NCBI GenBank assembly: GCA_964534955.1
Contig: CAZHRR010000004.1
Location: 1 to 42,159, forward strand
DNA: 42,159 bases
DNA from: an uncultured bacterium
GTDB lineage: Bacteria; Fidelibacterota; Marinisomatia; Marinisomatales; UBA2128
Direction of reading: 5' to 3'
The notes beneath the pieces were generated by a model. That model searched no databases, had not been told where the DNA came from, and worked only from the letters and a program-made list of their open reading frames with translations. Positions within the stretch are counted from its first letter, which is position 1. Every line of letters begins with the position of its first letter. The translations under genes and the position numbers were made by a program. Positions 4,195 through 42,159 of this stretch are shown here, one piece after another.

Positions 4195-4255
4195 GCCTGC
4201 CCGCTCCTCTGCCAGCCCTCATTCTTCGGGAGCAGACGGGAACGTCTGCCTTTTT
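4195..4255 (+). repeat. GCCTGCCC-family palindromic element (long B-like variant) ending in a GC hairpin plus T-run
   Basis: GCCTGCCCGCTCCTCT...TTCTTCGGGAGCAG aligns with the element at 42034-42063. GCAGACG-ggaa-CGTCTGC (4232-4249) is followed by TTTTT. Confidence 0.45.
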
Positions 4256-4419
4256 ATTGTTGATTTCTTTCAACCCAGCCCTGTGCACAGCATCCTGTGG
4301 AAAGGACTGGGCTACGGAAAATTCCCTGCAAACAAAAATGATTGACTGGACAACTAAAGATTCTCTGTACATAGCCGTCATTTACTAGGTTATGGAAAAG
4401 TGCTCATGCTTATCAATAG

Positions 4420-4463: not shown

Positions 4464-4479
4464 ACGCCGTTCACGGCGT
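4464..4479 (-). repeat. CGTGAACG-loop hairpin (ACGCCG-tgaa-CGGCGT on the minus strand) containing the transposase stop codon
   Basis: Perfect 6 bp stem. The TGA stop (4471-4473) of the transposase lies in the loop. Confidence 0.5.
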
Positions 4480-4962
4480 TATTCCGTGATGTTTCAATAA
4501 CCTGTTTAATTCTTCTTTATAGCTAATCTTTCTATGGTGTTCTTCCCCGCCTGACCGGGTAACCAGTCGGGCAGGCTGATTACGAATATACCGTCTGACT
4601 TTGTCCACTTGAGATTCCAAAACAGAAAAAACGGAAAAACCCCTTTGCCATATGAATTTACCGCGAATAAAGTTATTTGAATTAATCCAATGAGATGATT
4701 CGCCTTTTATTAAATTAGCAATATCAGATGGTGCTTGTGTTGGTTTTAGTCCTGCGAGTAAATGTACGTGTTCCATCTCACCGTAAACTGTATCTACATA
4801 AATACTGTTTTCTTCACCATATTCTTTGAAATGTAATATCAGGTTTTGGTTTAATTCTTTAGTAATAATTCTTTCCCGTTTTTTCGTTGACCAAACAAAG
4901 TGCATCCCCGCCTGCTCCCGACAAAGGAGGGCGGGCAGGCAGATTTTATGATAGGTTTGCAT
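4471..4962 (-). CDS. IS200/IS605-family Y1 (HUH) transposase, RAYT-like, carrying two in-frame palindromic-element insertions
   Basis: FVWSTKKR, HUH motif HVHLL, WQRGFSVFSV and the catalytic-Tyr region RRYIRNQ...HHRK are all present. The segments CLPALLCREQAG and PARLVTRSGG are encoded by GCCTGCCC-family elements. Confidence 0.75.
   Translation of the reverse strand: MQTYHKICLPALLCREQAGMHFVWSTKKRERIITKELNQNLILHFKEYGEENSIYVDTVYGEMEHVHLLAGLKPTQAPSDIANLIKGESSHWINSNNFIRGKFIWQRGFSVFSVLESQVDKVRRYIRNQPARLVTRSGGEEHHRKISYKEELNRLLKHHGITP
4546..4575 (-). repeat. type A GCCTGCCC element, 30 nt, inserted in frame in the transposase gene
   Basis: Minus strand CCTGCCCGACTGGTTACCCGGTCAGGCGGG aligns with GCCTGCCCGAACTGTTGTCCAGTCAGGCGGGC at 42004-42035. 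It splits YIRNQ from EEHHRK. Confidence 0.7.
4906..4941 (-). repeat. type B GCCTGCCC element, 36 nt, in frame near the transposase N-terminus
   Basis: Minus strand TGCCTGCCCGCCCTCCTTTGTCGGGAGCAGGCGGGG aligns with GCCTGCCCACCCTCCTTCGTCGGGAGCAGG at 42034-42063. Confidence 0.65.
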
Positions 4963-4982: not shown

Positions 4983-5043
4983 AGGGCGTGAACGCCCTCA
5001 CTATTTAGGGTGATTTCTCTAATCCCAGCCGTGAACGGCTGGG
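4983..5043 (+). repeat. two CGTGAACG-loop hairpins (AGGGCG-tgaa-CGCCCT at 4983-4998; CCCAGCCG-tgaa-CGGCTGGG at 5024-5043)
   Basis: Perfect stems of 6 and 8 bp with an identical loop and closing pair but different stem sequences. They sit upstream of the transposase, in inverted orientation relative to 4464-4479. Confidence 0.5.
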
Positions 5044-5153
5044 TTATGGAAAAATCTCTCCACACTGACGATAGCGATTGGATTGATAAAAATTGTTTGG
5101 GTTGATTATCTGTTTGAACCTCATAAGTTTTTCATATGCGGAACATGAGTCAT

Positions 5154-6880: not shown

Positions 6881-6916
6881 TTAGGAAACCAGGGACTTAA
6901 TCAGATGGCAGTTTGT

Positions 6917-6964
6917 CCGCCCGCCCAACGCTGTACGTGACGGGCAGGCAGTTAGCAGCCTGCC
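6917..6964 (-). repeat. GCCTGCCC-family element (type C) plus an adjacent GGCAGGC/GCCTGCC hairpin
   Basis: Minus strand GCCTGCCCGTCACGTACAGCGTTGGGCGGGCGG. GGCAGGC (6943-6949) pairs with GCCTGCC (6958-6964). Confidence 0.45.
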
Positions 6965-7222
6965 TATCGTCCCCCATTGAAGAAAAATCAGGAGTGCAAT
7001 GGTGAGATATGTCGTTGATTCTTCATATCCAATGTTTCGCCATATACCTCTTTTTTGTTTATAATCCCCATAGGTTAAAATAAATTCAGACTGTGGGTGA
7101 TTCAACAACAGTCCGGTTCTGTTCAACCCGATTTTATCCCCAATGCTCACAACGTTTTGATGAAAAGATGAAGTTTTGGTGAGCATTACGGATAAAACCC
7201 TATTCGTAAGATGCCATTCATA

Positions 7223-18041: not shown

Positions 18042-18227
18042 TTACCAGCTCGCCTTTGTCACACCTGGAATCTCACCTTTCAAAGCCATCTCACGGAAGC
18101 AGAGACGGCAGAGGCCGAATCTCCTCAGATATCCTCTGGGACGACCGCAATTGGAGCAACGATTATACTTTCTGGTGCTGAACTTGGGTTTACGCTTTGA
18201 TTTTGCAATGAGTGATTTCTTTGCCAT
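18042..18227 (-). CDS. rpsZ: 30S ribosomal protein S14 type Z (zinc-binding, 61 aa)
   Basis: [23 protein letters not shown] has the CxxC...CxxC pattern. Confidence 0.93.
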
Positions 18228-19240
18228 CAGGCTACCTCAGCTGCTTCAGTTAATTCATTAGAAACGGAATCACCTTCTTCCGCCACATTACTATTCTCTT
18301 TTTTAGCACGCTCGAAACGGTTATCAAGCCGGAAAGGTAATCCTAGTAATTTCAATAACTCATAACCTTCTTGATCCGTCTGGGCAGTTGTTACAATAGT
18401 GACATTCATTCCTCTTATCTTGTCAATTTTATCGTAGTCAATTTCGGGAAAAACAACGTGCTCTTCTATCCCCATGCTATAGTTTCCGTGACCATCAAAC
18501 GACTTAGCAGAAAGTCCCCGGAAGTCTCTTACCCTCGGAAGAGCAATAGAAACAAGTCTCTCAAGAAATTCGTACATCTTCCATCTGCGCAGAGTCACCC
18601 GACAACCGACAGGATCACCTATCCTCAATTTGAAATTGGAAATTGCTTTCCTAGCTTTCGTTACTACAGCTTTCTGTCCGGTGATTGTCGCCAAATCCTC
18701 AGATGCTTTTTCAAGAGAACCTGACTCATTCCTTGCATCACCCATACCAACATTCAGGGTTATTTTATTCAATCTGGGAACCTCTAAAGAATTGGTGTAA
18801 CCGAGTTCCTTCATCAAAGCAGGTGTAGCTTTCTCCCGATGATAAGCCAATAAAGAAGGTCTATATTCGGCTTTCTTCTTAGGAGAAGTCTTTTTTGCCA
18901 ATTCTGCCTTTTTAGGTGCAGACTTCTTCTGAGGAGTTGTTTTCGTCGAACTTCTTTTCTTGGCTGCAGGTTTTTTCGTCGTGCTCTTTTTGCCAGTAGA
19001 TTTTTTTACAGTACTTTCTGCTGTAGAAATTTTCTTGGCTGCAGACTTTTTTGTTGTACTTTTTGCCGAAGCTTGCTTCTTGGCAGTACTCTTTTTTACA
19101 GCAGATTTTTTCACTGTACTTTTCGCAGCAGCAATTTTCTTTGAACTGCTCTTCTTAGCCACAGATTTCTTGGCTGGGGCTTTCTCTTCTGCTTTAGAAG
19201 CTGATTTCTGTACTTTCTCTTTTTTCTCTTCCTTACCCAC
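18227..19240 (-). CDS. rplE: 50S ribosomal protein L5 with a ~125 aa Lys/Ala/Ser/Thr-rich N-terminal extension and a ~34 aa acidic C-terminal tail
   Basis: The core [40 protein letters not shown]... is a canonical L5. The ORF stays open for 125 codons upstream and starts 8 nt after the rplX stop. Confidence 0.85.
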
Positions 19241-24864: not shown

Positions 24865-26055
24865 TTACTCCACGATGCCTGTTACCACACCGGCACCGAC
24901 CGTATGCCCTCCTTCACGAATGGCGAACCGGAGATTCTCTTCCATAGCGATGTTTGTGATTAATTCCACATTCAGATTTACATTATCACCTGGCATCACC
25001 ATCTCCGTACCCTCCGGAAGGGTCACAACACCTGTCACATCCGTCGTACGGAAGTAGAACTGAGGACGATAGCCGTTGAAAAACGGTGTGTGACGCCCAC
25101 CCTCTTCCTTCTTCAGAATATATACTTCCGCCTTGAACTTCGTGTGAGGTGTAATACTTCCCGGCTTTGCAACCACCATACCGCGCTTCAGCCACTCCTT
25201 GTCGATACCTCTAAGAAGTAAACCGGCATTGTCGCCAGCCTGACCTTCGTCCAGCTCCTTCCGGAACATCTCCACTCCGGTCACCACTGTCTTCTCATGT
25301 TCTCCCAGGCCAACTATATCTACCTCATCTCCGACCTTCACAATACCGCGCTCTACTCGTCCGGTACCTACCGTACCACGGCCTGTAATGGAGAATACAT
25401 CCTCCACCGGCATCAAGAACGGCTTGTCAATATCTCGCTCCGGCTCTGGTATGTAGTTGTCGATGGCATCTACCAGCTCTCTAATACTTTGGGTCTTGTC
25501 TTCGTCATCCGGATTGTTCATAGCTTCCAGAGCACTCCCCTTGATAATAGGTATATCATCACCGGGGAATTCGTACTCACTCAAAAGCTCACGAAGCTCC
25601 AGCTCTACCAGCTCAATAAGCTCCGGATCGTCCACCTGGTCCGTCTTGTTCAGATAGACCACGATAGCCGGTACATTCACCTGACGAGCCAGAAGGACAT
25701 GCTCACGGGTCTGGGGCATGGGGCCGTCTGCCGCACTCACCACCAGAATGGCGCCATCCATCTGTGCCGCTCCGGTGATCATATTCTTGATATAGTCGGC
25801 ATGTCCGGGACAGTCAATGTGAGCGTAGTGACGGTTCTCCGTCTCATACTCCACATGTGCTGTCTGAATCGTAATACCGCGCTCACGCTCTTCAGGAGCG
25901 TTGTCAATACTGTCAAATGATCTGATCTCACTCAATCCGCGCTTGGACAGCATCATCGTCATGGCGGCTGTCAACGTAGTCTTGCCATGGTCAACGTGTC
26001 CTATCGTCCCAACATTCAAGTGGGGTTTAGTGCGCTCAAACTTTGCCTTTGCCAT
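24865..26055 (-). CDS. tuf: elongation factor Tu, copy 1 (str-operon copy)
   Basis: 396 aa with [18 protein letters not shown] and NKTD. The protein is identical to the ORF at 40645-41835. Confidence 0.98.
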
Positions 26056-33344: not shown

Positions 33345-36300
33345 TTAATGTAGCTTAACGTCCACACCGAGTCCCTGCAGTTCCTTAACAAGAACATTAA
33401 AAGATTCCGGAATTCCGAACTTCGGTACGTTATCTCCTCTTACAAGGCTGTTGTAAACTTTCGAACGGCCTTCCACATCATCTGATTTTCCAGTCAGGAT
33501 CTCCTGGAGAGTGTAAGCTGCGCCATAAGCTTCCAGAGCCCAAACTTCCATCTCTCCGAACCTCTGACCACCGAACTGGGCTTTCCCACCAAGTGGCTGC
33601 TGAGTGATAAGTGAGTAAGGACCGGTTGAGCGGGCATGCATCTTGTCATCAATCATATGATTAAGCTTTAACATGTAGATGTAGCCTATGGTAACAGGTT
33701 GATCAAATCTCCCGCCAGTTCTTCCATCAAAGAGAACTGTCTTTCCGCTCGTAGGGAGTTTGGCTTTCTCTAATTCTTCCACCACTTGCTTCGGTGAAGC
33801 ACCATCAAAAGAAGGTGTTTCATACCGTTCATCAAGTTCATGACCAGCCCATCCGAGCATTGTTTCATAAAGCTGACCCAGGTTCATACGTGAAGGTACA
33901 CCAAGCGGATTCAAAACAATGTCAACAGGAGTGCCATCCTCTGTGAAAGGCATATCCTCTTCAGGTACCACTACAGCTACTACACCCTTATTTCCGTGGC
34001 GACCAGCCATTTTATCCCCTACCTGAATCTTTCGCTTTTTAGCAATGTAAACCTTAGACAGCTTAGATACTCCAGGCTGAAGTTCATCACCTACTTGCAG
34101 CTTGTAGATTTCACGCTCCAGGTTCTCTTCTATCTTCCGCCACTCACGTCGGAATGAGTTCCACACTTGTTGTATTTGAATCCAGACCTTCCTATCCTGA
34201 ACCCACGGATTATCTCTGGAAATCTGTTCCAGATCAAGACCAGTCAGACGTTTTAAGGTTAACTTTGTAGATGCCTTGATAACAGTCTTCCCAGTATTAA
34301 CATCGCGCAACCCGGCACTGATCTGATCAGTTAGAAGTTGTACAAGTCTATCATCGCGCTTCTTCTTGATCTGCCTCTTCTTTACGGAAGTTTCTTTCTG
34401 CCTCTCGTGAATCATTTTCTTTTCCATTGCTCGAGTAGCTTTCGTCTTTCGTTCAAAAACCTGTGTTTTAATGACTACACCTTTAGTACCGGGATCTGCA
34501 CGTTTGGAAGCATCTTTTACATCCCCGGCTTTTTCTCCAAAGATTGCTCGAAGAAGTTTCTCCTCAGGTGTAGGATCGGTTTCACCTTTCGGAGTCACCT
34601 TACCTATTAAAATATCTCCTGCAGAAACCTCTGAACCAATACGGACAATACCATTTTCATCCAGGTCCTTGGTAGCTTCTTCACTGACGTTAGGAATTTC
34701 ACGAGTCAACTCTTCCTCGCCGCGTTTTGTATCCCGTACTTCAAGCTCTACCTCGGTGATATGCACTGAGGTAAATATATCATCTTTTACCAGCCTCTCG
34801 CTGATGACAATGGCATCCTCGAAGTTATAACCTCGCCAAGGCATAAAAGCCACCAGGACGTTCCGGCCTAAAGCAAGCTCACCTTTCTCCATGGAGGGAC
34901 CATCTGCTAACAGATCGCCCCGCTTAATAGTGATACCCTCCTGCACTACCGGACGTTGATTCATACATGTATCCTGATTGGTTCTGGAATACTTTACAAG
35001 AGGAATTCGAATTGTGTTTTCATCACGTGTTATGGTCATGTCATCTGGAATTTCATCCGTTTTAATTACGATTTCCTTAGCGTCAACGGATGTCACAACA
35101 CCTTTTACAGGAGAGTAAATACCACCCCGGGAATCATTGGCTACTGTCGCTTCCATACCCGTTCCCACGATGGGAGCCTGGGGATTAATCAGAGGAACTG
35201 ACTGGCGCTGCATATTTGATCCCATCAAAGCACGGTTGGCATCATCGTGTTCCAAGAAAGGAATTAGTGCAGCAGCAACACTTAGAATCTGGTGTGGAGC
35301 CACATCCATATATTGGACTTGTTCAGGCTCTACAATAGGGAAGTCACCCCGAATTCTGGCTCGAATATGATCCTCTGATATCCGACCCTTCTCATCTAAT
35401 TCGATATTTGCTTGAGCTATCATTGAGCGGTCTTCATCCTCTGCAGATAAATACTCTATCTTCTTTGTAACAAAAGCACCAGATCCATTTTTATTGGTCA
35501 CTATACGGTATGGAGCTTCGATAAAGCCCAGGTCATTCACTTTCGCATGAGTTGCCAGAGAGGAGATCAGACCAATATTGGGACCTTCCGGAGTTTCAAT
35601 GGGACACAGTCTTCCGTAATGAGTGTAGTGAACATCCCGGACCTCAAAACCGGCTCTCTCCCGTGTCATTCCACCTGGTCCTAAGGCTGATACTCTTCGC
35701 TTATGAGTTATTTCAGCTAATGGATTAGTCTGATCCATAAATTGACTAAGCTGACTGGTACCGAAGAAAGAGTTGATAACAGTTGTCACTACGCGAGAAT
35801 TGATGAGATCCTGAGGTGTTAAACTTTCTGCTTCCCGCAGATTCATCCGTTCACGAATGGTTCTCGACATGCGGTTCAGAGCAATAGAAAACTGATTGGT
35901 TAACTGTTCACCTACAGATTTCATCCTTCGATTACCCAAATGGTCAATATCATCAGCACCGCGGTTACCTTTTCTCATCTCGATCAGGAACTCAACAACC
36001 CGTATCATATCATCCGTAGTAAGCACAGTGTGATCAAGAGGTACATCCAGTGCAAACTGCTTGTTCAATCTATAACGACCTACTTTACCAAGGTCATATC
36101 TCTTAGGACTGAAAAACATCCTCTCAATAAACTTTTGGGCGGTTTCCAGATTAGGCGGTTCACCTGACCGGATGTGCTGATACATGAGGTTCAAAGATTC
36201 TTCAGTGTTTCTTGTAGGATCCTTCTTCATAGTATTCACAAGTAGTTCGGCAGAGAGATTATTGCCAGCATCAACTACTTCAACAGCATCAATCCCGGAT

Positions 36301-37124
36301 TTTTTGATTTCTTCGAGCAAATCCTCAGTCAGTTCGTTACCGCCTTCACAGATTATTTCACCTGTCTCCAGATCGACAACGTCATCAGCCAAGAATTTAC
36401 CAACTATCTTTTTGTTGGAGCGTTTGCTAATCTTCACTGTCTCAATAAGGCCGAAGGCCCTGAAGATGTCAGCATTTGAAGAAAAACCAAGAGAACGAAG
36501 TAACGTAGTGACAGGAAACTTCTTCCTGCGATCGATGATGACGAAAATGCAATCGTTAATATCGGTAGTATAATCAATCCATGAACCTCGGAATGGTATT
36601 ACACGGGCTTGATACAGCTTCGTCCCATTCGGATGGATGTGTTCATCAAAGAAGACACCTGGTGAACGCTGCAGCTGACTGACGATTACTCGCTCAGCTC
36701 CGTTAATGACAAACGTCCCGCGGTCTGTCATAAATGGTACATTGCCAAAATAGACGTCCTGATCAATACTGTGGGCATATTTCGTCCGGTCAAACTCATC
36801 GGTAATGTGCAGAGTCAGCTTCACTTTTAAAGGTACTGAGTAGGTTACCCCTCTTTCGAGACATTCAGAGGGTATGTATTTCGGCTTTCCATAATAGTAG
36901 CTCTTGTACTCAAGGATGTAGTTGCGGTGTGTATCCTCAATAGGAAAAGCATTCCGGAATACCTCTTCCAGTCCAAATGCTTCTCGCTTATTGACAGGTA
37001 CATCAAGCTGCATGAAATGCCTGAATGACCGTACTTGCACATCAAGAAGATTCGGCATCTTCTGAATGGACTTAATCTGTGAAAATGAGTTTCTTTTTGT
37101 TATTTTACTCTTTGTTGGAGACAA
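33345..37124 (-). CDS. rpoB: DNA-directed RNA polymerase subunit beta (TTG start)
   Basis: 1259 aa with [14 protein letters not shown] and [22 protein letters not shown] lies upstream of the TTG at 37124. Confidence 0.98.
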
Positions 37125-37204
37125 TATACTCTCCTCCTACTCTGTTATGATTTTATCCTGTTTAGCTGCGACGTTCATCATCGCTTTAGTTCTGATAAGC
37201 AGTA

Positions 37205-37585
37205 TTACTTGAGCTCTACAGAGGCGCCAACTTCTTCAAGCTGCTTCTTCATCTCTTCGGCTTCCTCTTTGCTCACGCCTTCCCGAACAGCCTTGGGAGC
37301 ACTCTCGACAAGATCTTTTGCTTCTTTAAGCCCAAGATCGGTCATACTCCTTACTACTTTAATTGCCTGGATTTTCTTGTCTCCTGCAGCTGTGAGAACA
37401 ACATCGAAAGTGTCTTTCTCCTCAACTGCAACTTCGCCACTTGCAACTGGACCGGCAGCAACCGCTACGGGAGCAGCGGCAGTAACACCAAACTTCTCCT
37501 CTATCTCAGATATTAATTCAGAGATCTCCAGCATATTGGCATTCTCAAGGTAGTCAAGAACATCTGTACGCTTAACCTCAGCCAT
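37205..37585 (-). CDS. rplL: 50S ribosomal protein L7/L12
   Basis: Ala-rich hinge followed by [24 protein letters not shown]. Confidence 0.96.
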
Positions 37586-37605
37586 TGTTGTATTCCTCCT
37601 GGTCT

Positions 37606-38124
37606 CTAGGACTGTTTAGTTTCTTTAAGATTATTGAGCACATTCACCATATTGCTCATCGAATTTTTCAAAGCTAAAGCTATCTTTGTCATAGGTGATG
37701 AAAGATCTGCTACCAATTTTGTAAGCAACTCCTCGTGAGAAGGTAAGTTAGCAATCTGAGCAAAAGAGACACGATCCATTACTTTACCTTCAAAAATGAA
37801 TCCTTTAACTTCCGGCAGTGCGTGGTCTTTCTTGAATTCTTTAATCACTCTCGCTGGTAACGTAGGATCATCATAAGAAATTGCGATGGCTGAGGGGCCG
37901 GTCAGCATATCATCAATATCGGCAAGCTCAGCTTCTTTTGACGATATTTTAGCCAAAGTATTTTTCACCACTGTGTACTCTACACCACTTTCATAAAATT
38001 TTCGGCGAAGCTCCGTTACATCAGCAACAGAAAGACCGAGATAATCAGTCACATATATACTTGTAGCTTTTTTCAGTTTATCTGTCAACCCTTCGACAGC
38101 GCTAATATTTTGTTGGTTTGGCAT
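37606..38124 (-). CDS. rplJ: 50S ribosomal protein L10
   Basis: 172 aa. Position between rplA and rplL, with [19 protein letters not shown]. Confidence 0.93.
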
Positions 38125-38128
38125 CTCT

Positions 38129-38818
38129 CTACACCAAAGTTGATTTATCCACTTTTATCCCCGGTCCCATAGTAGAAGAAACAGTTACTTTTTTCAAATA
38201 GGTACCTTTTACCGTTGTTGGCTTTTCCCTCATTAACCTCGAAACAACTGATTTGAGATTGTCAATCAGAAGTTCAACTTCAAATGAACTTTTACCAATA
38301 CTAACATGAATGATACCGAATTTATCAACTCTCAGCTCTACACGACCGGCTTTGATTTCCTGGACGGTCTTTGTTAAATCTTTTGTAACAGTACCGCTTT
38401 TGGGATTGGGCATCAAACCCTTTGGACCAAGAATCTTTCCAAGCTTTCCTAACTGGGGCATCATCTGTGGAGAAGCAACTATGACGTCTATCTCGTCCCA
38501 ACCACTTTCGAGCTTTTTAATGTATTCATCGCTGCCGGCAAAATCAGCTCCAGCATCGATTGCATCATTCACATTTGAGCTATCAGTCAAGACAAGAACA
38601 CTTATTTCTCTGCCAGTGCCGTGAGGTAAAGAAGTTGTAACGCGAATATTCTGTTCTGCCCGCTTGGGATTAACTCCAAGATTCACCGTGGCCTCTATTG
38701 TTTCATCAAACCTGGCTTTGGAGGTCTCTTTCACAAGCGTGAAAGCTTCTTCAGGAGCATAATAATGTGTCCTATCAATTTTCTTTAAACTTTCGTTATA
38801 TTTTTTACCGTGATGCAT
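38129..38818 (-). CDS. rplA: 50S ribosomal protein L1
   Basis: GPKGLMPNPKSGTVT and IHVSIGKSSF. Confidence 0.96.
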   Translation of the reverse strand: MHHGKKYNESLKKIDRTHYYAPEEAFTLVKETSKARFDETIEATVNLGVNPKRAEQNIRVTTSLPHGTGREISVLVLTDSSNVNDAIDAGADFAGSDEYIKKLESGWDEIDVIVASPQMMPQLGKLGKILGPKGLMPNPKSGTVTKDLTKTVQEIKAGRVELRVDKFGIIHVSIGKSSFEVELLIDNLKSVVSRLMREKPTTVKGTYLKKVTVSSTMGPGIKVDKSTLV

Positions 38819-38821
38819 CTT

Positions 38822-39247
38822 TTACCCCTGAACCTCAATTCCCATACTCTCAGCAGTCCCTTTGATAATATTCATGGCAGCTTCAATTGTATTTGCATTC
38901 AAGTCCTGCATCTTAGTCTCTGCAATCTTTCTAACATCATCCTCTGATACATTTCCTACCTTTTCTTTGTTAGGCTCAGCAGATCCTTTATCAATTTTAG
39001 CTGCCTTCTTTAGAAGAACCGCTGCTGGAGGTGTTTTAGTGATAAATGTGAATGAACGATTCTCATAGACCGAAATCACAACAGGAATCACAGTCCCCAT
39101 CTGATCCTTCGTCTTTTCGTTGAACGCCTTGCAGAAGTCCATAATGTTCACACCGTGCTGACCTAAAGCAGGTCCTACAGGTGGTGCAGGATTCGCTTGT
39201 CCACCTCGGATTTGAAGCTTGATAATAGTCATCACTTTTTTTGCCAT
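38822..39247 (-). CDS. rplK: 50S ribosomal protein L11
   Basis: [35 protein letters not shown]. Confidence 0.97.
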
Positions 39248-39254
39248 GGTTTTC

Positions 39255-39782
39255 CTATTTCTCGTGTTCTACCTGAAGATATTCAAGTTCAACAGGCGTA
39301 GACCTTCCAAAGATGGAGATAAGCACTGTTACTTTCTGCTTTTCAGCATTCACTTCCTGCACTAAGCCATTGAAATCCACAAATGGACCATCCACAATCT
39401 TGACAGGTTCACCTTTATGAAAACGTGTACCAACCACTTCACGTCCATCCATATTTTCTACTTCACCCAAGATTCGCTTTACTTCAACTTCTTTCAACGC
39501 TTCTGGCTGGTTATTTGGACCAACAAAACTGACGATTCCATGGATATTTTCCACAAAATGCCGCGACTCTTTATCCAACTCCATTTTGACCAGTATATAT
39601 CCGGGAAAGAAGACCTTATTCTTAACAACCTTCTTACCCCCTCTCATTTCTACGACGTTTTCTGAAGGAACGAGGACTTCTTCAATTCTATCTGCCATTT
39701 CACCTTCGCTGGCTTCGTGAAGGAGTGAATCACGTACCTTCTTTTCACGTCCAGATAATACTCTAAGTGAATACCATTCCAT
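39255..39782 (-). CDS. nusG: transcription termination/antitermination factor NusG
   Basis: [14 protein letters not shown], a C-terminal KOW region [11 protein letters not shown], and the conserved position. Confidence 0.95.
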
Positions 39783-39785
39783 CTT

Positions 39786-39968
39786 CTACAATATTACCTG
39801 CATAATAAGATTTAATACTTGATCAACTACAAAGAGAAATACACCGAGAAGTACAGCAAGACCAAGGACCACATATGTCGATCCACGAAGTTCGTCCCAG
39901 GTAGGCCATGAAACTTTCTTCATTTCGAACTGCACACCTTCTAAAAAGTTGCGTATCTTCTTTATCAT
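39786..39968 (-). CDS. secE: preprotein translocase subunit SecE
   Basis: 60 aa with EMKKVSWPTWDEL plus a single transmembrane helix, directly upstream of nusG. Confidence 0.9.
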   Translation of the reverse strand: MIKKIRNFLEGVQFEMKKVSWPTWDELRGSTYVVLGLAVLLGVFLFVVDQVLNLIMQVIL

Positions 39969-39986
39969 TCCTATTCACTTTTTTTT

Positions 39987-40059
39987 ATGAGCGGTAAGAA
40001 TTTCCGAAGTGCGAAGCCTCCTGCGGAGATCATACGGAGAACCCTCAACCGCTGATTTT
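39987..40059 (-). pseudogene. degenerate tRNA-Trp 3' half (copy 3) with a 36 nt hairpin in the T-loop position
   Basis: Minus strand AAAATCAGCGGTTGAGGGTTC[36 nt, 40003-40038]AATTCTTACCGCTCAT aligns with AAAACCGGCGGTTGCGGGTTCAATTCCTGCCGCTCCT of tRNA-Trp. Confidence 0.55.
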
Positions 40060-40091
40060 GCCTGCCCGAACTGGTGTCCATTCAGGCGGGC
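40060..40091 (+). repeat. type A GCCTGCCC element
   Basis: GCCTGCCCGAACTGGTGTCCATTCAGGCGGGC, abutting the anticodon-loop end of the copy 3 remnant. Confidence 0.65.
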
Positions 40092-40160
40092 TTGTCCGTC
40101 ATTGCAGGTGAGGCAGGAATTTCCAAAGGATCCTGTGGAGAACCCGCAACCGCCGGTTTT

Positions 40161-40200
40161 GCCTGCCCGAACTGATGTCCAGTCAGGCGTGCCTGCCCGC
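40161..40200 (+). repeat. type A GCCTGCCC element with an extra terminal GCCTGCCCGC
   Basis: GCCTGCCCGAACTGATGTCCAGTCAGGCGTGCCTGCCCGC. It forms the 3' boundary (in tRNA orientation) of the insert in the outer tRNA. Its inverted partner CGGCAGGCAG is at 40320-40329. Confidence 0.65.
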
Positions 40201-40235
40201 CAATTAACTGTAGAATTATCTACCATAATTAATTG

Positions 40236-40308
40236 CAGGAGCGGCAGGAATTGAACCCGCAACCGCCGGTTTTGGAGACCGGTGCTCTACCAATTGAGCT
40301 ACGCTCCT
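40236..40308 (-). tRNA. trnW: tRNA-Trp (anticodon CCA), intact, no encoded CCA end
   Basis: AGGAGCG TA GCTC AATTGGTA GAGC A CCGGT CTCCAAA ACCGG CGGTT GCGGG TTCAATT CCTGC CGCTCCT G gives a full cloverleaf with discriminator G73. Confidence 0.93.
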
Positions 40309-40469
40309 AATTCCACTTTCGGCAGGCAGGGAGACCGGTGCTCTACTCCCGATTATAGTCGGGAAGCTACTCACCTATTTCCTCAATAAGCAGGCGGAGA
40401 AACCATTGTTTTACTCTCGACCTCCGTCGAGAAACTGCGTTCCTATCCAATATCTTTTCCACAACAGAC

Positions 40470-40634
40470 CTACTTGGTCTCCTTGTGAACAGTATGGCAC
40501 CGGCACCAAGGGCAGTATTTCTTGTGTTCAACTCGATCAGGATGCTCCCGCCTGTTCTTGGAAGTAGCATAATTCCGTCGGTGACATTCAGGACACTCAA
40601 GTATCACCAGATCTCGTTTACTGTTACCGCCCAC
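40470..40634 (-). CDS. rpmG: 50S ribosomal protein L33 (zinc-binding type, GTG start)
   Basis: Hand translation [54 protein letters not shown]. The GTG lies 10 nt after the tuf stop behind AAGGAG. The track instead lists a spurious 77 aa ORF in another frame. Confidence 0.88.
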
Positions 40635-40644
40635 GTTATTCTCC

Positions 40645-41835
40645 TTACTCCACGATACCTGTTACCACACCAGCACCGACCGTATGCCCTCCTTCACGAA
40701 TGGCGAACCGGAGATTCTCTTCCATAGCGATGTTTGTGATTAATTCCACATTCAGATTTACATTATCACCTGGCATCACCATCTCCGTACCCTCCGGAAG
40801 GGTCACAACACCTGTCACATCCGTCGTACGGAAGTAGAACTGAGGACGATAGCCGTTGAAAAACGGTGTGTGACGCCCACCCTCTTCCTTCTTCAGAATA
40901 TATACTTCCGCCTTGAACTTCGTGTGAGGTGTAATACTTCCCGGCTTTGCAACCACCATACCGCGCTTCAGCCACTCCTTGTCGATACCTCTAAGAAGTA
41001 AACCGGCATTGTCGCCAGCCTGACCTTCGTCCAGCTCCTTCCGGAACATCTCCACTCCGGTCACCACTGTCTTCTCATGTTCTCCCAGGCCAACTATATC
41101 TACCTCATCTCCGACCTTCACAATACCGCGCTCTACTCGTCCGGTACCTACCGTACCACGGCCTGTAATGGAGAATACATCCTCCACCGGCATCAAGAAC
41201 GGCTTGTCAATATCTCGCTCCGGCTCTGGTATGTAGTTGTCGATGGCATCTACCAGCTCTCTAATACTTTGGGTCTTGTCTTCGTCATCCGGATTGTTCA
41301 TAGCTTCCAGAGCACTCCCCTTGATAATAGGTATATCATCACCGGGGAATTCGTACTCACTCAAAAGCTCACGAAGCTCCAGCTCTACCAGCTCAATAAG
41401 CTCCGGATCGTCCACCTGGTCCGTCTTGTTCAGATAGACCACGATAGCCGGTACATTCACCTGACGAGCCAGAAGGACATGCTCACGGGTCTGGGGCATG
41501 GGGCCGTCTGCCGCACTCACCACCAGAATGGCGCCATCCATCTGTGCCGCTCCGGTGATCATATTCTTGATATAGTCGGCATGTCCGGGACAGTCAATGT
41601 GAGCGTAGTGACGGTTCTCCGTCTCATACTCCACATGTGCTGTCTGAATCGTAATACCGCGCTCACGCTCTTCAGGAGCGTTGTCAATACTGTCAAATGA
41701 TCTGATCTCACTCAATCCGCGCTTGGACAGCATCATCGTCATGGCGGCTGTCAACGTAGTCTTGCCATGGTCAACGTGTCCTATCGTCCCAACATTCAAG
41801 TGGGGTTTAGTGCGCTCAAACTTTGCCTTTGCCAT
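40645..41835 (-). CDS. tuf: elongation factor Tu, copy 2 (tRNA-linked copy)
   Basis: Protein identical to copy 1. The DNA differs at only two synonymous sites (40657, 40672). Confidence 0.98.
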
Positions 41836-41864
41836 TGCTATTCCTCCTTAGTTGAGAGAAAATG

Positions 41865-41937
<73 letters not shown>

Positions 41938-41957
41938 ACAAGTTCCTTCATGCCTAG

Positions 41958-42003
41958 AGCGGCGGACGAGGCTTCCCGACTGATTCGGGACGACCCTCAG
42001 CTT
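41958..42003 (-). pseudogene. tRNA-Gly 3'-half remnant with a 17 nt hairpin replacing part of the T arm
   Basis: Minus strand AAGCTGAGGGTCG[TCCCGAATCAGTCGGGA]AGCCTCGTCCGCCGCT versus intact AAGCTGAGGGTCGCGAGTTCGAGCCTCGTCCGCCGCT at 42090-42126. Confidence 0.65.
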
Positions 42004-42077
42004 GCCTGCCCGAACTGTTGTCCAGTCAGGCGGGCCTGCCCACCCTCCTTCGTCGGGAGCAGGTGAGCCTACCCGCC
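42004..42077 (+). repeat. abutting type A and type B GCCTGCCC elements
   Basis: GCCTGCCCGAACTGTTGTCCAGTCAGGCGGGC (42004-42035) then GCCTGCCCACCCTCCTTCGTCGGGAGCAGG (42034-42063) plus TGAGCCTACCCGCC. Confidence 0.65.
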
Positions 42078-42089
42078 ATGTTCCATATG

Positions 42090-42159
42090 AGCGGCGGACG
42101 AGGCTCGAACTCGCGACCCTCAGCTTGGAAGGCTGATGCTCTACCAACTGAGCTACCAC
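42090..42159 (-). tRNA. trnG: tRNA-Gly (anticodon UCC), 5' end truncated by ~3 nt at the window edge
   Basis: ..GTGG TA GCTC AGTTGGTA GAGC A TCAGC CTTCCAA GCTGA GGGTC GCGAG TTCGAGC CTCGT CCGCCGC T, with discriminator U73 typical of bacterial tRNA-Gly. Confidence 0.85.

Follow-up and report, generated by a model that had tools for sequence, protein, structure and literature searches.

Nested tRNA-Trp genes and short hairpin elements in the rpmG-secE spacer of an uncultured bacterium of the Marinisomatales

The DNA studied here is a stretch of 42,159 nucleotides (nt) from an uncultured bacterium (Fidelibacterota; Marinisomatia; Marinisomatales; UBA2128), contig CAZHRR010000004.1 of assembly GCA_964534955.1, and is referred to below as the window. 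It contains a neighbourhood with the bacterial gene order tuf-rpmG-tRNA-secE-nusG. On the minus strand of the spacer between rpmG and secE, an intact tRNA-Trp(CCA) gene lies within a 169-nt insert, hereafter the cassette, which interrupts the anticodon loop of a second, outer tRNA-Trp sequence. This nested arrangement had been pointed out by a reading of the sequence alone, and we describe here the locus, its counterparts in relatives and a family of short GC-rich hairpin elements to which the cassette appears to belong. The coordinates of the features are collected in Table 1.

Read 5' to 3' on the minus strand, the outer 5' half is AGGTGAG TA GCT TCCCGACTATAATCGGGA GTAGAGC A CCGGT CTCC and the outer 3' half is AAA ACCGG CGGTT GCGGG TTC TCCACAGGATCCTTTGGA AATT CCTGC CTCACCT G; on re-reading of 40376-40105 the sequence-only reading proved correct base for base. 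The two halves rebuild a cloverleaf, as had been claimed: the rejoined sequence folds with extended D and T arms at -40.1 kcal/mol (z = -3.3, equalled by none of 200 shuffles), and half-tRNA models run with nhmmer recover the 5' half at E = 1e-5 and the 3' half at E = 4e-9. Both 18-nt hairpins reported for the outer copy are present, one in place of the D loop CAATTG and the other between C56 and A57 of the T loop. The inner gene is the sole tRNA-Trp copy at the locus that ARAGORN and Rfam score as a tRNA (71.7 bits), and is presumed to be the working gene. No Rfam family except tRNA was found at the locus, either at the gathering threshold or at E <= 10. Inner and outer tRNAs are identical at 69 of 73 positions, and their acceptor stems, AGGAGCG/CGCTCCT in the inner ('C-type') and AGGTGAG/CTCACCT in the outer ('R-type') copy, differ as described by two fully compensated pairs, 4:69 and 6:67. 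The intact tRNA-Trp is not a hybrid, since the two strands of its acceptor stem fit one another and are unlike those of either outer half.

The length of the interruption given by the sequence-only reading stands, and its placement between C35 and A36 is ambiguous by one nucleotide, a C, so that an insertion between C34 and C35 is equally valid. In that alternative the insert runs from 40330 to 40162 in the context GGTCTC^CCTGCCTG...CGGGCAGG^CAAAACC, and the junctions, CTC^CCTGCC and GGCAGG^CAAA, have at most 1 nt in common. The inverted termini GCCTGCC/GGCAGGC are present; CCTGCC...GGCAGG is a perfect repeat, and the imperfect repeat extends further to TGCCTGCCGAAAGTG and CAGTTCGGGCAGGCA, which match at 12 of 15 positions. 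From left to right the cassette consists of a left end, CTGCCTGCCG plus AAAGTGGAATT, the intact tRNA with about 10 nt of leader and trailer of its own, an AT-rich hairpin spacer, the segment GCGGGCAGGC and a closing hairpin element of type A (see below). It contains no plausible protein-coding open reading frame (ORF), just short ORFs that overlap the tRNA and the repeats, and no promoter-like or terminator-like site was seen in the spacer. No tyrosine or serine integrase was found in the insert or among the window genes scanned. The tRNA segments that adjoin the cassette reach as far as the small hairpins and measure 17 nt (left) and 21 nt (right).

Positions 40295-39960, from inside the inner tRNA to secE, are identical in two Logan assemblies of the same organism (SRR8146443 and SRR8146442), so the downstream part of the structure is no isolated product of one assembly. 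Assemblies of three relatives contain the left junction. Both Logan contigs (L001 and L002) begin in the D loop of the inner tRNA, their position 1 corresponding to about 40295 of the window, and the local repeats are shorter than the assembler word size. This break may be due to differences among strains upstream, in a 5' part that would be polymorphic.

By its NusG the organism belongs to Marinimicrobia/Fidelibacterota. The rpmG-secE locus was compared with those of relatives, designated L003, L004, L052, L053, L054, L056, L065 (GCA_046861645.1), L005 and L060/L061. An inspection of this spacer had been proposed along with the sequence-only reading, and it revealed an empty site in L003, L004 and L052 (NusG 91-92% identical). 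Each has a single plain tRNA-Trp equal to the rejoined outer halves of the window, the outer 5' half being identical to it once the hairpin is removed, and the flanks are also those of the window (leader GGGAGAAATT, trailer CAATG..GGACAAG). The outer 'gene' is therefore a former resident that was split by the 169-nt insert.

A filled state was found in other relatives. L053, L054 and L056 have a 5' half of the resident type that breaks off at the position seen in the window, and after it come the same 21-nt left end and an identical inner tRNA (AGGTGAATAGCTCAATTGGTAGAACATTGGTCTAC, then CTGCCTGCCGTAAGTGGAATT, then the tRNA). This half has an ordinary D loop and 5 substitutions in 35 positions, and neither a right end nor a 3' half is left. 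The state of L065 is more decayed (...GGTAGAGCATGGGTCTCC, then CCGCATCAAGAAAATGGAATT, then the tRNA), with 8 of 35 positions substituted and 15 of 21 left-end positions identical; the inner tRNA has the same sequence in L053 and L065. The extra 5' halves are recovered at E = 1.7e-7 in L053/L054/L056 and 1.3e-5 in L065, and the half-tRNA models gave no significant Trp 3' half in L053 or L065. In the window, the outer halves have no substitution outside the hairpins. The outgroup loci L005 and L060/L061 bear an R-type tRNA-Trp.

A nucleotide-identity tree of the secE-rplA region has the form (((L004 group, L053 group), window), L065), with L005 and L060 outside, and tuf, rpmG, secE and nusG all match it. 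The filled state is scattered over this tree and the resident half is unequally decayed (0, 5 and 8 of 35 positions in the window, L053 and L065). The comparison thus points to repeated insertion, or to insertion followed by exact loss, and in either case DNA would have moved. Transfer of alleles between lineages as the source of the shared junction was rejected, since the flanking genes track the species tree. Two further candidates in L065 were also discarded: an older C-type fragment upstream, for which the alignment proved to be just diverged leader, and a decayed type A element with a 3' half downstream, a 10-nt match whose score was reached by 33 of 2000 shuffles. Outside the tRNA loci, comparison of 35257-42159 with L053 and L004 disclosed no other window-specific insertion. 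In a further sequence, the metagenome contig L055 (1-1215), unrelated coding sequence takes the place of the tRNA and of all but the last ~90 nt of secE ahead of nusG, apparently a rearrangement or a chimeric contig.

Around the structure described so far there is a second nested layer (40444-40396 and 40097-39987), which is absent from the sequence-only reading. Its outermost 5' half, called X, has the C-type acceptor AGGAACG. X is not significant with a plain half-tRNA hidden Markov model (HMM); aligned to the outer 5' half plus left end it matches without gaps at 38 of 58 positions, with a score of 36 against 14.9 +/- 2.5 for shuffled sequences, none of 2000 doing as well. It is followed by the left end of an older cassette, in which TTATTGAGGAAAT corresponds to GGGAGAAATT, the leader that precedes tRNA-Trp in relatives. 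On the other side, the right part of the older layer is identical to the inner unit at 61 of 71 positions (score 98, shuffles 16.3 +/- 2.8, 0 of 2000 reaching it), and the 36-nt T-loop hairpin of its 3' half resembles the outer T hairpin with another hairpin inside. The complete order is thus doubly nested: X5' - (left end - R5' - (left end - intact tRNA - spacer - GCGGGCAGGC - type A) - R3' - trailer - GGACAAGC - type A) - X3'. The acceptor types through the layers are C-like, R and C, and the outermost layer is decayed by about 20%. As judged from these alignments, the order shows that the present 'resident' R-type tRNA itself came in such a cassette, inside a still older tRNA-Trp.

The same architecture, also absent from the sequence-only reading, is found at tRNA-Gly(UCC). 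An intact tRNA-Gly lies 85 nt upstream of a Gly 3' half, which is followed by the native flank and tRNA-Thr; the stretch 42089-41958 comprises a spacer, one element of each type and the half itself. In L053, L064 and L065 a plain tRNA-Gly is followed 19 nt on by tRNA-Thr with the same flank, which represents the empty site. Because the hairpin-bearing 3' half keeps the native flank, it belongs to the resident gene, and whatever lies between it and the intact tRNA-Gly has been added. Past the window end, exact-protein searches with L33 and EF-Tu had no match, and two candidate proteins for the neighbouring contig led to relatives whose Gly site is empty. Its hairpin, TCCCGAATCAGTCGGGA, stands in place of the T-arm sequence CGAGTTCG and replaces one strand of the T stem. 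Apparently, tRNA-Gly is a second nested case with the same cassette architecture. The model predicts that upstream of 42159 a Gly 5' half ending in ...GCATCAGCCTTC is followed by an end of the CC(C/T)GCCTG type.

The non-tRNA parts of the cassettes belong to a family of elements of 30-33 nt, of which at least 7 copies occur in the 42-kb window, to which all copy counts refer. They are imperfect palindromes and are over-represented; the sequence GGGCAGGC occurs 11 times against 0.9 expected. Type A is a 31-nt GC-rich element (consensus CCCGCCTGAcTGGACAnCAGTTCGGGCAGGC) that folds as an imperfect DNA hairpin of about -8 kcal/mol. Three copies lie on the minus strand near the tRNA loci, each abutting a tRNA 3' half that begins just past the anticodon CC. 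Type A copies besides that of the cassette lie at 40090-40060, 42034-42004 and 4546-4575. Type B has the consensus CCCGCCTG CTCCCGACrAAGGAG GGyGGGCAGG and is present in the Gly spacer, in a transposase gene and, inverted, upstream of that gene. Both types were recovered by nhmmer at E = 1e-6 to 1e-8. Members start with C(C/T)(C/T)GCCTG and end with CGGGCAGG, the plain elements having the form CCCGCCTG...CGGGCAGG. The left end of the cassette resembles the 5' part of type B; alone it does not fold, and pairing is possible with GCGGGCAGG at 40199-40191. The right end is GCGGGCAGGC plus type A, that of the older Trp layer is built likewise, and the Gly insert ends with type B plus type A.

A common target, TC^C, is present at every junction of known native sequence: CTC^CAA in tRNA-Trp, TTC^CAA on the right side of the Gly insert, and the two sites in the transposase gene (Table 1). 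It is likewise found at other element copies. TC^CA occurs in the anticodon loops of tRNA-Trp-CCA (C-U-C^C-A) and tRNA-Gly-UCC (U-U-C^C-A), the two tRNAs affected. Target duplication amounts to 0-1 nt at tRNA-Trp and is nil at the two insertions in the transposase gene, where removal of the element restores the native codons. This gene encodes an IS200/IS605-family Y1 transposase that scores as an IS200 equivalog (76.5 bits). Compared with five homologues taken from 4097 matches, the protein has exactly two extra blocks, of 11 and 10 residues, and removing both improves its match to the IS200 profile and to solved TnpA structures. One of the two type B copies near the gene (4907-4939, plus strand) is an in-frame insertion within the gene itself, the other (4208-4241, minus strand) being upstream. 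The HUH motif and the catalytic Tyr are intact, and to judge from the sequence the transposase may still work with its 10- and 11-residue inserts. This IS200 copy has direct-repeat ends of its own (4361-4399 and 5015-5053), unlike the type A and B elements, and its hairpins, of the GCCGTGAACGGC type (4465-4478, 4984-4999 and 5025-5042), are unrelated to them.

Searches for the family elsewhere were negative. The 20-nt core of type A gave 42 matches in 185,579 species genomes, all of them chance matches in GC-rich coding DNA, and a stricter element pattern gave none in the metagenomes of the Joint Genome Institute (JGI). Scans of viral contigs with the element patterns, with the left junction, and with the inner tRNA plus leader yielded zero or chance matches, and six-frame translations of the elements found nothing in the protein database at E <= 10.

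Each displaced tRNA half in the window bears a small hairpin, in the D loop of the 5' halves and in the T arm of the 3' halves. The stem TCCCGA/TCGGGA is common to the Trp D loop and the Gly T arm, a compensated variant of it, TCTCGA/TCGAGA, is present in the older Trp layer, and the two Trp T-loop hairpins have their first 11 nt in common. In the spacer upstream of the intact R-type tRNA-Trp of L005 (318-399; ~65% nucleotide identity) we observed a relic that resembles a 5' half with the start of the same D hairpin (GAATAGCTTTCCAGACTATAA); a GCCTGG motif lies at the spot expected for the left end of a cassette. When this relic was aligned to GAGTAGC-TTCCCGACTATAA of the window, 1 of 2000 shuffles reached the score. 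The 5' halves of L053 and L065 have no D hairpin, which is therefore not obligatory. These hairpins are, by their sequence, a recurring templated family rather than random decay. The R-type tRNA must have been intact until the present cassette came, so its D hairpin is recent; being recent yet old in sequence, it would have been made on a template. The hairpins would then be minute elements with a site specificity of their own, unless the split halves move along with the cassette. They would be expected to break the D/T elbow, so that the relic is no longer taken for a tRNA. A derivation from type B through the shared TCCCGA was considered and dropped, as this hexamer is common in the window (22 copies).

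Table 1. Features of the nested tRNA loci and of the hairpin elements in the window
Feature	Positions	Strand	Remarks
Outermost (X) decayed tRNA-Trp 5' half	40396..40444	-	C-type acceptor AGGAACG; ends ...TTCTCC
D-loop hairpin TCTCGACGGAGGTCGAGA of X 5' half	40432-40415	-	homologous to outer D hairpin
Left end of older cassette bearing R-type tRNA, GCCTGC + TTATTGAGGAAAT	40377..40395	-	
Outer (former resident, R-type) tRNA-Trp 5' half, tRNA positions 1-35	40330..40376	-	half-tRNA model E = 1.1e-5
18-nt D-loop hairpin TCCCGACTATAATCGGGA in outer 5' half	40364-40347	-	in place of D loop CAATTG
Insert (cassette), 169 nt	40161..40329	-	missing in L003/L004/L052
Cassette left end CTGCCTGCCG + AAAGTGGAATT	40329-40309	-	
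Intact inner C-type tRNA-Trp(CCA)	40308-40236	-	ARAGORN; Rfam RF00005, 71.7 bits
35-nt AT-rich hairpin spacer	40235-40201	-	
GCGGGCAGGC in cassette	40200-40191	-	
Type A element closing cassette	40191-40161	-	
Outer (R-type) tRNA-Trp 3' half, tRNA positions 36-73	40105..40160	-	half-tRNA model E = 4e-9; present in Logan contigs L001/L002
18-nt T-loop hairpin TCCACAGGATCCTTTGGA in outer 3' half	40139-40122	-	between C56 and A57
Right part of older layer: trailer CAATGAC, decayed GGACAAGC, type A, outermost 3' half (84% direct repeat)	39987..40104	-	
Decayed GGACAAGC of older layer	40097-40090	-	
Second type A element	40090-40060	-	type A model E = 3e-8
Outermost decayed tRNA-Trp 3' half	40059-39987	-	half-tRNA model E = 1.3e-3
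36-nt T-loop hairpin of outermost 3' half	40038-40003	-	
tRNA-Gly(UCC) locus	41958..42159	-	
Intact tRNA-Gly	42159-42090	-	5' end cut by window
Gly spacer	42089-42068	-	
Type B element at Gly	42067-42035	-	
Type A element at Gly, third copy	42034-42004	-	
Resident Gly 3' half, from A37	42003-41958	-	
Hairpin TCCCGAATCAGTCGGGA in Gly 3' half	41990-41974	-	in place of T-arm CGAGTTCG
IS200/IS605-family Y1 transposase gene	4471..4962	-	Pfam, NCBIfam, PDB alignment
Type A insertion in transposase gene, 30 nt	4546-4575	+	target TTC^CTG; between NQ and EEHH
Type B insertion in transposase gene, 33 nt	4907-4939	+	target ATC^CAG; splits conserved Trp codon
Inverted type B copy upstream of IS200 region	4208..4241	-	E = 1.2e-8; 84% complementary over 32 nt
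Variant element CCGCCCGCCCAACGCTGTACGTGACGGGCAGG, then GGCAGGC..GCCTGCC	6913-6965 (variant 6913-6949)	+	intergenic
Different GC-rich hairpin cluster TTAAGGGG...CCCCTTAA	9175-9235	+	intergenic

Given the anatomy of the locus, the empty and filled sites, the common termini and target, the exact insertions, the serial nesting and the intact inner tRNA, all of them seen in the DNA, the rpmG-secE spacer probably records successive insertions into tRNA-Trp of a small protein-less cassette, itself a member of a family of GC-rich hairpins. Its mobility is what we infer from the comparison of these states. The best reading is that the cassette is a cargo-carrying member of a family resembling repetitive extragenic palindromic (REP) elements or MITEs (miniature inverted-repeat transposable elements), moved in trans and self-compensating. 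The sequence-only reading had offered, as one option, an inverted-repeat cassette that targets the anticodon loop and brings a replacement tRNA, and this option is borne out by the empty sites, the shared left junctions, the older layer and tRNA-Gly. The insertion and the replacement tRNA of that model stand, while the D- and T-loop hairpins are not explained by it.

In such a scenario the present cassette would have landed at U33-C34^C35 of the resident tRNA-Trp, the inner tRNA would have taken over, and the outer halves would be the two pieces left of the earlier resident gene. As the insert makes good the function that it destroys, it would be tolerated in a normally single-copy, essential gene. 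Movement could be due to an enzyme that works in trans on single-stranded, hairpin-forming DNA, and our best candidate, put forward tentatively by analogy, is an HUH/Y1 transposase of the IS200/IS605-RAYT kind (RAYT, REP-associated tyrosine transposase). This kind is favoured since it inserts by a short motif, without duplication, with exact joints and with hairpin recognition. The Y1 transposase of the window is an unproven candidate for the kind of enzyme that moves the family. The loops of tRNA genes might be favoured as targets because they stay unpaired when the strand folds. That a cassette resides in its cognate tRNA would be due in part to survivorship, as insertion into a single-copy tRNA gene is survivable only when the same tRNA is brought along, and possibly to homology-assisted homing.

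Several points weigh against this interpretation. No movement, intermediate or enzyme has been observed, and the sole transposase of the window bears end hairpins of another kind and is among the targets of the elements. In the genome, metagenome and viral scans the element was not found outside this organism. The upstream part of the structure, with the D hairpin and the outermost 5' half, is present in the window assembly alone, and the left junction at tRNA-Gly lies past the end of the window, so that an integrase-type origin may apply there. The small hairpins do not follow from the model, and their stem recurs across layers, in another tRNA and in a distantly related genome. Finally, plain targeting of TC^C fails to explain a Trp cassette in the tRNA-Trp of at least three lineages; homology-assisted homing, or one old insertion with exact excision in the L004 group, may be needed to account for this recurrence.

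That three lineages have the same cassette at one site, each time in the cognate tRNA, could be accounted for if the whole composite allele (halves, hairpins and cassette) were copied into intact tRNA-Trp genes by homologous recombination, which we consider possible, if doubtful. The tRNA halves or the conserved neighbouring genes would serve as arms, and a break at TC^C in intact alleles may stimulate the copying; in one version the break would be made by an RNA-guided nuclease whose guide is the tRNA segment adjoining the right end. The alternation of acceptor types through the layers agrees with this explanation, as do the hairpin-bounded tRNA segments at the cassette ends and the canonical D hairpin shared by the recently split half of the window and the L005 relic, which implies a template. 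According to two reports, TnpB of the IS605 family uses guide RNAs from the transposon end, cuts vacant sites and thereby drives homing (PMC10055086; 10.1101/2023.11.20.567912). However, plain type A and B members have inserted into the transposase gene without flanking homology, so the family can do without it, the arms would span just 12-21 nt between heterologies, and L053 and L065 have no D hairpin. Moreover, the flanking genes match the species tree, and no nuclease, TnpB or IscB gene was found in the window. Carried further, and with equal reserve as to its likelihood, selfish 'replacement tRNA' cassettes might actively home into the cognate anticodon loop and leapfrog one another in a turnover of essential tRNAs within and between lineages, the hairpins disarming the displaced tRNA. 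Acceptor stems unlike those of the victim (the R/C alternation) would then stop nested halves from mispairing, and each new cassette could invade the tRNA brought by the previous one. In the boldest version the tRNA segment beside the hairpin end would be the guide, TC^C the adjacent motif, and a trans-encoded nuclease would cut uninterrupted alleles; by analogy, the geometry makes this version conceivable.

Set against the serial insertion of a mobile cassette, three other origins have little probability. The second option of the sequence-only reading was that the composite is a functional structured RNA under selection, either a processing platform for the inner tRNA or an independent non-coding RNA. 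The outer halves without a substitution outside the hairpins, the hairpins that lengthen loops and leave stems intact so that the rejoined halves fold as a cloverleaf, and the compensated pair by which the D-hairpin stems of the layers differ would all agree with it. We do not favour it and think it quite improbable, because relatives have an outer 5' half eroded by point mutations and no longer have the 3' parts, L004 manages without any composite, and the outermost layer of the window is itself decayed. The Gly hairpin, moreover, takes the place of a T-stem strand, removal of the D hairpin leaves GCU-GUAGAGC and would not restore a D loop, and there is no Rfam family for the composite. tRNA genes are entered by genomic islands, prophages and integrative plasmids with a replacement tRNA segment in attP, and such events are typically marked by tRNA 3' halves that lie displaced downstream of an intact tRNA, a pattern to which the visible Gly locus and the two tandem Trp 3' halves conform. 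An archaeal case with a leftover tRNA-Thr fragment, a tRNA 5' fragment beside a recombinase-bearing element, has been described (PMC3293823). The present locus is like these elements in the tRNA target (often the anticodon or T loop), the working tRNA that is kept and the displaced fragments in series. It is unlike them in that the whole insert measures 169 nt and carries a complete tRNA, no integrase gene lies in or beside it, no common core exists at the two Trp junctions, and both resident halves stay, nested and without a hybrid. In addition, both resident Trp halves enclose a complete tRNA with a matched acceptor, whereas a crossover would give two mismatched acceptor pairs, and the same termini occur on the 30-33-nt elements in a coding gene. 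Remnants of such an integration, with the element later almost wholly deleted, are thus highly improbable at tRNA-Trp; for tRNA-Gly alone, with its left junction outside the window, an integrase origin may still apply. A tandem duplication of tRNA-Trp with random decay, or an assembly chimera of two strains' alleles, is barely credible. The 69/73 identity of inner and outer copies could mislead an assembler, and the Logan contigs of the same organism break in the inner tRNA, but the order is nested and not tandem, the junctions are exact and recur in independent assemblies from other samples (the left one in L053, L054, L056 and L065, the right one in L001 and L002), and those parts of the insert that are not tRNA come from a repeat family with copies elsewhere in the window.

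Other known systems share some of these traits. REP elements inside genes are known, and a GTAG or CGTC tag is a criterion for them (PMC3733652). The present elements are like REPs, REPINs (REP doublets forming hairpins) and RAYTs in being over-represented GC-rich imperfect palindromes of 30-33 nt, single or in tandem, some within a coding gene; a Y1 transposase gene has inverted copies on both sides, one of them being the in-frame insertion, and a RAYT association is no more than possible. They are unlike these systems in having no such tag, their ends being CCCGCCTG and CGGGCAGG, and in a Y1 gene that scores as IS200 and is interrupted by the elements. We know of no REP described with a tRNA cargo or inside a tRNA gene. 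Elements of the IS200/IS605 family insert 3' of a short motif without target duplication. Their single-strand 'peel and paste' transposition is presented in one of the reports cited above (PMC10055086). Like the non-autonomous members of this family, the palindrome-associated transposable elements (PATEs), the cassette has a fixed short motif (here TC^C), no target duplication, a right-end hairpin and exact insertions, so that excision could restore the target, and the preference for unpaired loops would fit a single-stranded target. Unlike them, its ends are also short inverted repeats, and neither a left-end hairpin nor a tie to a particular TnpA is evident, the end hairpins of the resident IS200 copy being unrelated.

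Group I introns occur in bacterial tRNA anticodon loops, and function is restored by RNA self-splicing. Here too the insert lies in an anticodon loop and the cell keeps a working tRNA, whereas the gene that is interrupted no longer works, and a second one, within the insert, supplies the function. A group I intron was rejected, as Rfam detects tRNA only and no ribozyme core, and the insert without its tRNA is ~95 nt long. Rickettsia palindromic elements (RPEs) and prokaryotic MITEs, of ~100-150 bp, can be inserted in frame, the MITEs usually with target duplications. Like them, the present elements are short palindromic selfish DNA tolerated in genes, including in-frame insertions in a protein; the terminal inverted repeats are as in MITEs, and the target-site duplication, 0-1 nt, is not. 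To our knowledge, no RPE or MITE carries a tRNA gene and none has been reported nested in its own cognate tRNA. RPEs are mentioned in one of the sources consulted (PMC3733652). In Archaea, split, multi-intron and permuted tRNA genes have been described (PMC4390854, PMC4033280), with interruptions in the D, anticodon and T regions and complementary GC-rich sequences flanking the halves, as here. Those genes are expressed, and their transcripts are repaired by the bulge-helix-bulge endonuclease; the present locus is bacterial. A bulge-helix-bulge intron, which has two 3-nt bulges on either side of a 4-bp helix, was rejected, the helix UGCCUGCC/GGCAGGCA being flanked by 5 and 2 unpaired nt. The remark that no described bacterial element of this architecture was known agrees with full-text literature searches, which yielded no tRNA-carrying element nested in its cognate tRNA.

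If the interpretation as serial cassette insertions is true, this would be the first bacterial case found in which a mini-element that encodes no protein settles, in nested layers, in a tRNA gene that is normally essential and single-copy, thanks to the complete spare copy that it brings. It would offer a route for horizontal replacement of tRNA alleles in which the cell is never without the tRNA, and a living bacterial model for interrupted and split tRNA genes that arise from mobile DNA, a question argued mainly on archaeal genomes. Insertion that is exact, leaves no duplication and takes place at TC^C of unpaired loops speaks for an enzyme of defined, testable specificity. The tRNAs hit are predicted to be those with U33-C34-C35 (anticodons CCN) or U34-C35-C36 (UCC), which tRNA-Trp-CCA and tRNA-Gly-UCC fit. 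For annotation, the locus is a warning that half-tRNAs and loop-expanded pseudo-tRNAs may adjoin real tRNAs.

Some other observations were made in the window. Two tuf genes of 396 amino acids each are present, at 24865-26055 after fusA and at 40645-41835 after the tRNA cluster, and in L004 (164-3462) fusA-tuf is directly joined to rpmG-tRNA-Trp-secE. The sequences suggest a recombination between tuf copies or an assembly join across them. An ORF at 18227-19240 on the minus strand (337 amino acids) contains ribosomal protein L5 preceded by an N-terminal extension of ~150 residues, which has a sub-threshold match (E = 6.5e-10) to the histone H1-like HC2 family PF07382; the ORF may be over-extended, or the extension may be one rich in lysine and alanine. 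At 2198-2581 on the minus strand there is a gene with a PIN domain (PF01850, E = 4e-15); some PIN toxins cleave tRNA anticodon loops.

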